Source: Escherichia coli (GTDB lineage Bacteria; Pseudomonadota; Gammaproteobacteria; Enterobacterales; Enterobacteriaceae). From it: DNA of 64,000 nucleotides. The notes under the pieces were generated by a model. The model was given only the letters and a program-made list of their open reading frames with translations. It had not been told where the DNA came from and made no database searches. A program made the translations under genes and the position numbers. Shown here piece after piece: positions 61,664 to 64,000 of this stretch. Every line of letters starts with the position of its first letter. Within the stretch, counting starts at the first letter, position 1. The stretch lies in the NCBI RefSeq assembly GCF_003334405.1, contig NZ_QOWM01000001.1. One strand, written 5' to 3'.

Positions 61664-61982
61664 AGTAGTCTCCTGAGGTTTTATTAGAATCATTATGTTT
61701 GAGCGTAGCGTTGGTAACGCTACCAGGCGCGTGAATGTTACCCCATTTTATGTATGGACATGTAGTGAAAACTACAACCTTGTCGTTCGCTTTGGCATCA
61801 TTTTCATTATAAAGACGGAATTTTGCATCAGCTTCTCATCAAGAAAAACAACTAAAAAATCAATCACAATACTTGTGCATTTCTTTAAACAGTTTTTAAA
61901 AACTGACTCCGGGTATGGAGCTATGGGTATTTTCTGTACCCAATGCTTTTAACAGCAATTAATTTCATAGGATGAAAGCTCA

Positions 61983-64000
61983 ATGCATCAATCTGGTTCT
62001 GTTTCTCTTTGTCGTTCCGCAATATCTGTTCTGGTGGCTACAGCGTTATATTCACCCATAGCATTGGCATCAACTGTTGAGTATGGTGAGACAGTTGATG
62101 GTGTTGTCCTGGAAAAAGATATCCAGCTGGTTTATGGGACCGCCAATAATACGAAAATCAATCCTGGCGGAGAACAGCATATAAAAGAATTTGGTGTAAG
62201 TAATAATACTGAAATTAACGGAGGGTATCAGTACATTGAAATGAATGGCGCCGCAGAATACTCAGTATTAAATGACGGTTATCAAATTGTTCAAATGGGT
62301 GGCGCGGCAAACCAGACTACGCTCAATAATGGTGTGCTACAGGTTTATGGCGCAGCGAATGATACCACGATTAAAGGCGGGCGCTTAATCGTTGAAAAAG
62401 ATGGGGGGGCCGTCTTTGTCGCTATCGAAAAGGGAGGACTACTGGAGGTTAAAGAGGGGGGATTTGCATTTGCGGTAGATCAGAAAGCAGGCGGTGCTAT
62501 TAAAACAACCACGCGGGCCATGGAGGTATTCGGAACAAACCGTCTCGGTCAGTTCGATATCAAGAATGGTATTGCTAATAATATGTTGTTGGAAAACGGC
62601 GGAAGTTTGCGAGTTGAAGAAAATGACTTCGCTTATAATACCACTGTAGATAGTGGCGGCTTACTGGAGGTTATGGATGGCGGGACTGTAACTGGCGTTG
62701 ATAAAAAAGCAGGCGGAAAATTAATTGTCTCAACGAATGCGCTGGAAGTGAGTGGTCCAAACAGTAAAGGCCAATTTAGTATAAAAGATGGTGTGTCAAA
62801 AAATTATGAACTGGATGATGGTTCCGGGCTCATTGTTATGGAGGACACGCAGGCCATTGATACTATCCTTGATAAGCATGCCACTATGCAATCGCTGGGA
62901 AAGGATACTGGTACGAAAGTGCAGGCAAATGCGGTATATGATCTCGGTCGATCATATCAGAATGGAAGTATCACGTATTCCTCAAAAGCCATCTCTGAAA
63001 ATATGGTTATCAACAATGGCCGCGCTAACGTCTGGGCTGGCACAATGGTTAACGTTTCAGTCAGAGGGAATGATGGCATTCTTGAGGTCATGAAGCCGCA
63101 AATAAATTATGCACCCGCAATGTTGGTGGGTAAGGTAGTGGTTTCTGAGGGCGCTTCTTTTAGAACGCATGGTGCCGTGGATACCAGCAAAGCGGACGTT
63201 TCGCTCGAAAATAGCGTATGGACCATCATTGCCGATATCACTACGACGAACCAAAACACCCTCCTCAACTTAGCCAACCTTGCGATGTCTGACGCAAATG
63301 TGATTATGATGGATGAGCCAGTGACTCGTTCATCAGTGACGGCAAGTGCGGAAAATTTCATTACGTTGACCACCAATACCCTGTCGGGAAACGGCAATTT
63401 TTATATGCGTACCGATATGGCTAATCATCAGAGCGATCAGCTCAACGTCACCGGTCAGGCAACAGGTGATTTCAAAATATTCGTGACGGACACCGGTGCC
63501 AGCCCGGCAGCAGGAGATAGCCTTACACTGGTAACAACGGGCGGCGGTGATGCTGCATTTACGTTGGGCAATGCCGGAGGCGTTGTTGATATCGGTACGT
63601 ATGAATATACCTTGCTGGATAATGGCAACCATAGCTGGAGTCTGGCAGAGAATCGCGCGCAAATTACCCCTTCAACCACTGATGTGCTGAATATGGCGGC
63701 CGCACAACCGCTGGTATTTGATGCAGAACTGGACACCGTGCGTGAGCGTCTTGGTAGCGTAAAAGGCGTTAGTTACGATACGGCGATGTGGAGTTCGGCA
63801 ATTAACACCCGCAACAACGTGACCACTGATGCGGGAGCTGGTTTTGAGCAAACATTGACGGGCCTGACGCTCGGTATCGATAGCCGTTTCTCCCGTGAAG
63901 AAAGCAGTACAATTCGCGGCTTGATCTTTGGTTACTCTCATTCTGATATTGGTTTTGATCGCGGCGGCAAAGGTAATATCGATAGCTATACCCTGGGGGC
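61983..64000 (+). CDS. yejO: autotransporter-type adhesin, N-terminal about 672 codons (3' end beyond window end)
   Basis: ATG at 61983; hand translation MHQSGSVSLCRSAISVLVATALYSPIALAS... stays open to the window edge (spot-checked at 62880 and 63960); Gly/Asn/Thr-rich passenger repeats; not in ORF track because no stop in window. Confidence 0.75.
   Translation, partial: MHQSGSVSLCRSAISVLVATALYSPIALASTVEYGETVDGVVLEKDIQLVYGTANNTKINPGGEQHIKEFGVSNNTEINGGYQYIEMNGAAEYSVLNDGYQIVQMGGAANQTTLNNGVLQVYGAANDTTIKGGRLIVEKDGGAVFVAIEKGGLLEVKEGGFAFAVDQKAGGAIKTTTRAMEVFGTNRLGQFDIKNGIANNMLLENGGSLRVEENDFAYNTTVDSGGLLEVMDGGTVTGVDKKAGGKLIVSTNALEVSGPNSKGQFSIKDGVSKNYELDDGSGLIVMEDTQAIDTILDKHATMQSLGKDTGTKVQANAVYDLGRSYQNGSITYSSKAISENMVINNGRANVWAGTMVNVSVRGNDGILEVMKPQINYAPAMLVGKVVVSEGASFRTHGAVDTSKADVSLENSVWTIIADITTTNQNTLLNLANLAMSDANVIMMDEPVTRSSVTASAENFITLTTNTLSGNGNFYMRTDMANHQSDQLNVTGQATGDFKIFVTDTGASPAAGDSLTLVTTGGGDAAFTLGNAGGVVDIGTYEYTLLDNGNHSWSLAENRAQITPSTTDVLNMAAAQPLVFDAELDTVRERLGSVKGVSYDTAMWSSAINTRNNVTTDAGAGFEQTLTGLTLGIDSRFSREESSTIRGLIFGYSHSDIGFDRGGKGNIDSYTLG

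Follow-up and report, generated by a model that had tools for sequence, protein, structure and literature searches.

The K-12 reference genome of Escherichia coli annotates yejO as a pseudogene, divided in two by an insertion sequence, IS5K. At the end of another stretch of E. coli DNA, the same gene reads open from its start codon to the last nucleotide available. Two questions follow. Is the open frame the ancestral state of the locus, or a K-12 sequence that has shed its insertion? And what would the intact gene encode? We address both using a stretch of 64,000 nucleotides, referred to throughout as 'the window' (RefSeq assembly GCF_003334405.1, contig NZ_QOWM01000001.1), together with reference genomes, a population of complete E. 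coli genomes, and searches of protein and RNA families.

The features of the locus are collected in Table 1. The genes narP and yejO are transcribed divergently, narP from a start codon that is the complement of 61661..61663, and yejO from the ATG at 61983..61985. The initial annotation, made from the letters alone, had put the spacer between them at 319 bp, which is exact, and had called it AT-rich, which the composition bears out: 36.4% G+C, compared with 47% for yejO and 51.9% for the whole window. It had also described the yejO frame as uninterrupted for at least 672 codons; translation of 61983..64000 yields 672 sense codons and zero stops. Synteny upstream of yejO can be read directly from the window, and downstream (the tRNA-Pro gene proL, then yejM) from identical genomes. 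In these genomes (PSJ-16 and ML35) yejO is 2592 bp long, and its product of 863 aa bears the annotation 'autotransporter YejO' (WP_000554226.1). The window's gene belongs to this orthologue group by two tokens: residues 1–672 are identical to the ML35 and PSJ-16 protein, and it occupies the same position, between narP and proL/yejM. Because the final 191 codons (574 nt) and the stop lie beyond the window, where the frame is readable only to codon 672, we infer the intactness of this copy from the identical genomes. The YejO locus of O157:H7 strain EDL933 (WP_000554210.1) is 97.8% identical in DNA to the window.

Table 1. Features of the narP–yejO locus in the window
Feature	Position	Strand	Basis or remark
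narP, nitrate/nitrite response regulator, 215 aa	61016..61663	-	ORF and translation; named narP in collinear genomes
narP–yejO divergent spacer, 319 bp	61664..61982		AT-rich; presumably houses both promoters
yejO codons 1–672 of 863, type Va (classical) autotransporter gene (probable)	61983..64000	+	Open frame; window edge cuts gene
Predicted Sec signal peptide, residues 1–29, MHQSGSVSLCRSAISVLVATALYSPIALA, then STVE	61983..62069	+	Translation read by inspection
TTAT, empty target site of K-12 IS5K	62046..62049	+	K-12 junction sequences, NC_000913.3 coordinates
AIDA-type passenger repeats, residues 51–315	62133..62927	+	Pfam PF16168; TIGR04415
Pertactin-like domain, C-terminal end of passenger, residues 431–555	63273..63647	+	Pfam PF03212, E 3e-45
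Autotransporter beta-barrel start, from residue 602, cut by window edge	63786..64000	+	Pfam PF03797

The gene order ccmH–narP–yejO–proL–yejM is shared with MG1655, but there yejO is split by an IS5 of 1195 bp, whereas the window's frame runs on unbroken from its ATG. The initial annotation had placed an IS5 copy adjacent to or within yejO in K-12, and had allowed that it might lie downstream of the window. That placement was accurate, and alignment to K-12 places the insertion point inside the window rather than beyond it. Specifically, yejO (b2190) in NC_000913.3 is a pseudogene joined from 2290114..2290180 (67 nt) and 2286390..2288914, and its two fragments are separated by IS5K at 2288919..2290113, which carries insH8 (b2192). 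IS5K points the same way as yejO, interrupts it after nucleotide 67, and has duplicated a 4-bp target, TTAT. Its junctions (marked here by slashes) read ...GCGTTAT/GGAAGGTGCGAACAAG...CTTATTCGCACCTTCC/TTATATTCACC, and with longer flanks ...GGCTACAGCGTTAT/GGAAGGTGCGAACAAG... and ...CTTATTCGCACCTTCC/TTATATTCACCC... At the same place the window has GGCTACAGCGTTATATTCACCC, where TTAT occurs only once; it fills codon 22 and extends one base into codon 23, in the part of yejO that codes for the predicted signal peptide. The IS5 copy at yejO has been described as being in direct orientation and 100% wild-type (PMC11677980). As an aside, its K-12 target, TTAT (62046..62049 in the window; 4047..5249 of the K-12 derivative locus), departs from the CTAA/CTAG-type sites generally cited for IS5 (PMC11677980).

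An insertion element was also sought elsewhere in the window, the initial annotation having reported none near yejO. With up to two mismatches allowed, the IS5 terminal repeat (GGAAGGTGCGAAYAAG) has no match anywhere in the 64 kb; the only match with three mismatches is at chance level. Full-length IS5K, compared with the window by blastn, gives chance matches only (37 bp or shorter, E ≥ 0.2), and the collinear 64-kb stretch of ML35 contains no annotated transposase. Three features define the K-12 state: IS5 terminal inverted repeats, the transposase gene ins5A, and duplication of the 4-bp target at codon 22/23. The window displays none of these, and so is in the empty-site state.

How closely the empty site resembles the K-12 gene before insertion can be judged by removing the element. 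When IS5 and one TTAT were deleted from a K-12 derivative genome and 6001 bp were aligned with the window (58000..64000), there were 0 mismatches over the spacer and yejO, and two in total, both in narP (61569 and 61649). The YejO protein reconstituted in this way from K-12 is 863 aa long, and identical to the intact YejO of PSJ-16. The window carries, then, the exact pre-insertion allele of yejO—the uninterrupted state that the initial annotation had proposed. Since the two yejO fragments of K-12 have undergone no further change, the insertion looks recent.

We asked how common each state is among 5426 complete E. coli genomes, counting as a hit any genome in which at least 80% of the query was covered. 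A 100-bp query across the yejO/IS5 junction of K-12 was covered in 357 genomes, and a 56-bp query confined to the junction found the same 357. Among 60 records listed as an even sample of these, all 59 full-length junction matches were K-12 laboratory strains or their derivatives, including MG1655, BW25113, DH5alpha, C600, J53, HB101, MC4100, JM109, AB1157 and O16:H48. The corresponding 100 bp across the empty site was covered in 5050 of the 5426 genomes (93%). An uninterrupted site is what E. coli normally has, and the IS5 insertion is a marker of the K-12 lineage. The IS5K insertion in K-12 yejO is recorded in the reference annotation and in published papers, and the uninterrupted wild-type allele is likewise already known.

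These observations are best explained jointly, and we consider the explanation almost certain: the source of the window is an E. coli outside K-12, close to phylogroup-A-type strains such as ML35, that has kept the ancestral, uninterrupted yejO, and it was the K-12 lineage that was struck by IS5. A 1195-bp IS5 (IS5K, with its gene insH8) entered the TTAT at codons 22/23 in the laboratory lineage of K-12, and divided the signal-peptide coding region from the remainder of yejO, leaving a pseudogene.

What the uninterrupted gene encodes is suggested by its domains. Three hallmarks of the type Va autotransporters can be found in YejO: a Sec signal peptide (by inspection), a passenger of beta-helical repeats with a pertactin-like (autochaperone) region, and a C-terminal beta-barrel. 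The signal peptide begins MHQSGSVSLCR, with a basic residue, and continues through a hydrophobic core to A-L-A followed by S, the putative cleavage site. In the passenger, PF16168 matches strongly twice (E 8e-24 and 1.5e-21) and more weakly in further copies, and the strand-loop-strand repeat TIGR04415 scores 65–67 bits against a cut-off of 30. The pertactin-like region matches the solved structures of pertactin (1dab) and Vag8 (7akv). The barrel, PF03797, spans residues 602–841 of full-length YejO (E 9e-45), of which residues 602–672 are in the window and the rest are taken from the identical PSJ-16 gene. TIGR01414 scores 369 bits with the full protein and 185 bits with the part in the window, against a cut-off of 16, and residues 582–863 align with the barrel of BrkA (3qq2). 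The product of intact yejO is probably, therefore, by its domain content, an 863-aa type Va autotransporter. The signal peptide would carry the protein to the periplasm, the beta-barrel would enter the outer membrane, and the passenger—a predicted beta-helix of AIDA-type repeats capped by the pertactin-like domain—would reach the cell surface.

Its relatives are of two kinds. The nearest solved structures to the passenger are those of Ag43, an AidA-I family adhesin, and TibA, and to the C-terminal part, those of Vag8, BrkA and pertactin. The self-associating adhesins AIDA-I, Ag43 and TibA share with YejO both the AIDA-type strand-loop-strand repeats and the type Va beta-barrel, but YejO is shorter, and its scores fall far below the equivalog cut-offs of the Ag43/Cah family (NF033177; 131–141 bits against 1200) and of AIDA-I (NF033176; 74–75 bits against 1200). 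By these scores YejO is related to the Ag43/Cah and AIDA-I families, yet is a member of neither. The Bordetella proteins pertactin, BrkA and Vag8 likewise have a PF03212 domain ahead of a homologous barrel; belonging to another genus, they are only distantly homologous, with passengers unlike that of YejO. Judged by its relatives, the YejO passenger probably acts as an adhesin. A search of the accessible literature for a phenotype or an experimentally determined function of YejO found none.

Whether the intact gene is used is a separate matter. yejO would be expressed from a predicted promoter in the AT-rich, 319-bp spacer that it shares with narP. The spacer is identical in K-12 and the window, and has a mean column identity of 99% across EDL933, ECSC054, AHB29 and A33, with no variation in the 100 nt closest to narP. 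In similar kinds of strains, yejO itself is only 93–98% identical, compared with 99% for the spacer. Three further elements were considered for this region, and none is assigned. For a sigma-70 promoter, which would suit the 'promoter-like' label of the initial annotation, a simple consensus scan of 60700..62200 gave 0 sites (shuffled sequences gave 2.6), a result that weighs neither for nor against a promoter. A hidden gene, in the form of a mechanical 85-aa ORF at 61695..61952, has no coding signature, its eight variable sites among five strains being split 3/2/3 over codon positions 1/2/3. Nor do we propose an attenuator or other regulatory RNA for the leader of yejO. At gathering thresholds Rfam has no family match in the spacer, and the one candidate hairpin is unconserved: a terminator-like structure at 61924..61942 is broken by substitutions in ECSC054 and in B2-type sequences, with no compensating change.

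The evidence on expression cuts both ways. Intact yejO might be cryptic, silent under ordinary conditions, such that K-12 lost nothing when IS5 entered it. This reading concerns function only, is compatible with the ancestral state of the window's allele, and is a serious possibility, if one to which we assign somewhat less than even weight. It accords with the low G+C of the upstream spacer (36%) and its want of a strong sigma-70 consensus, and with the wild-type behaviour of a K-12 delta-yejO strain (PMC11005336). A weak, indirect sign in the same direction comes from IS5 itself: deleting the yejO copy leaves the frequency of IS5 transposition unaltered, unlike deletion of the nmpC copy (PMC11677980), and because the authors of that study tied the nmpC-copy effect to read-in from upstream promoters, the promoter of yejO may be weak. 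Against silence, the 99% conservation of the spacer across divergent strains, higher than that of yejO, fits a maintained regulatory region, though narP shares the spacer, and most of the genomes sampled retain intact yejO.

Not all of them do. At least 80% of yejO was covered in 4282 of the 5426 genomes, and 60 evenly sampled genomes were assessed for the state of the gene. Forty of the 60 had a single collinear full-length match. The K-12 IS5 interruption accounted for three, and an IS1A interruption for one; three, strain 042 included, had an allele 222 bp shorter; 12, LF82 and SaT040 included, had a remnant of 30–36%, and one had a remnant of 9%. Individual strains illustrate the variety of lesions. 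STEC409 has IS1A approximately 590 nt into the gene, TBU0218_11-3CC has IS1B approximately 180 nt into it, and IS26 adjoins a remnant without the N-terminus in AH21C082. The B2-type strains A33 and AHB29 contain frameshifted remnants of approximately 770–930 bp. Such remnants in UPEC/B2-type strains, 30–36% of yejO, occupy the same locus as the window's gene and share its narP-proximal spacer and 5' end, but are frameshifted where the window's frame is open. The passage of PMC3426408 that cites Wells et al. 2010 places YejO in commensal and diarrhoeagenic genomes, and says that every UPEC genome has it truncated; according to PMC5654935, ST131 lacks it. Our population search agrees with both on the truncation or loss of yejO.

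Lesions this diverse, arising as they appear to have done independently, point to recurrent loss of the gene. Selection could lie behind it, if intact YejO were costly in certain niches, perhaps because it served as a surface antigen or was targeted by phages or the immune system; we think this doubtful. Were it true, the window's intact allele would be the form in which to test the cost of YejO. The same diversity bears on the window's own copy. The window ends at codon 672 of 863, and many strains have inactivated yejO independently, by IS1A, by IS1B, through IS26-associated loss, or by deletion to B2-type remnants, such that a lesion in the last 574 nt, past the edge, could have made a pseudogene of this copy as well. 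We consider that very unlikely. Genomes that match the window exactly over 9–25 kb hold an intact, 2592-bp yejO, and a single full-length match is the state of two-thirds of the even sample described above.

An ancestral, uninterrupted allele in a non-K-12 strain is also what the remainder of the window indicates. Many wild isolates, ML35 and NCTC9100 among them, match its last 25 kb at 100% identity, and from 2371 to 64000 the window is collinear with ML35 at 99.98–99.99% identity, save for one deletion, in yfaS. That the window is instead a K-12 derivative, relieved of IS5 by precise excision or by engineering (e.g. an IS-cleaned strain), would account for the perfect match of its spacer and yejO to K-12 minus IS5 and one TTAT, but is effectively refuted by approximately 30 substitutions relative to MG1655 over 45 kb, one 113-bp repeat unit fewer at 47.2–47.8 kb, the 3195-bp yfaS deletion, phenylalanine in place of serine at NarP residue 32, and that same 25-kb identity to wild isolates.

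The NarP difference deserves a word of its own. Apart from IS5 and one TTAT, positions 61569 and 61649 (narP, minus strand) are the sole differences between the window and the K-12 derivative in 58000..64000. The first changes residue 32, F in the window and S in K-12; the second is synonymous. The window's NarP allele (WP_001113637.1) is also present in ML35, PSJ-16, STEC409 and ECSC054, and S32 may, for this reason, be private to K-12.

Several other features of the window were observed in passing. In yfaS, which encodes a protein of the alpha-2-macroglobulin family, the window lacks 3195 bp at 22192/22193 in comparison with both ML35 and MG1655. The deletion removes 1065 codons in frame, is associated with a 2-bp microhomology, 'CA', and leaves a fused, 439-aa remnant (ORF 21054..22478, plus strand). 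A 200-bp query over the deletion junction was covered to at least 80% in 0 of the 5426 complete E. coli genomes, while its halves match separately; the deletion is either private to this strain or an error of assembly. Between eco and mqo, at 47211..47763, a 113-bp unit that contains REP is repeated in tandem, in 4.9 copies; Rfam calls five of the units naRNA4. ML35 has the same number of units as the window, and MG1655 has one (113 bp) more. A second, larger autotransporter gene, yfaL/ehaC (1250 aa; AIDA-I family adhesin), is present at 11302..15054 (plus strand), and is intact, as in ML35. The convergent intergenic region of ccmH and narP (60806..61015) contains REP-type palindromes between two hairpins, 60812..60834 and 60987..61011. 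After each hairpin comes a T-run, on the strand of whichever gene lies across the REP block, and the two terminators thus appear to be placed crosswise. Finally, the small RNA MicF is found at 39100..39193 (minus strand), beside ompC, its usual place.

As a discovery, the open yejO frame carries little weight: the locus is known and here has its usual wild-type form, to which K-12 is the exception. Its value lies in what it provides. The empty TTAT at 62046..62049 is a clean marker of non-K-12-laboratory origin, and the window's allele, being the exact pre-insertion sequence, could serve to restore YejO or to test its function.
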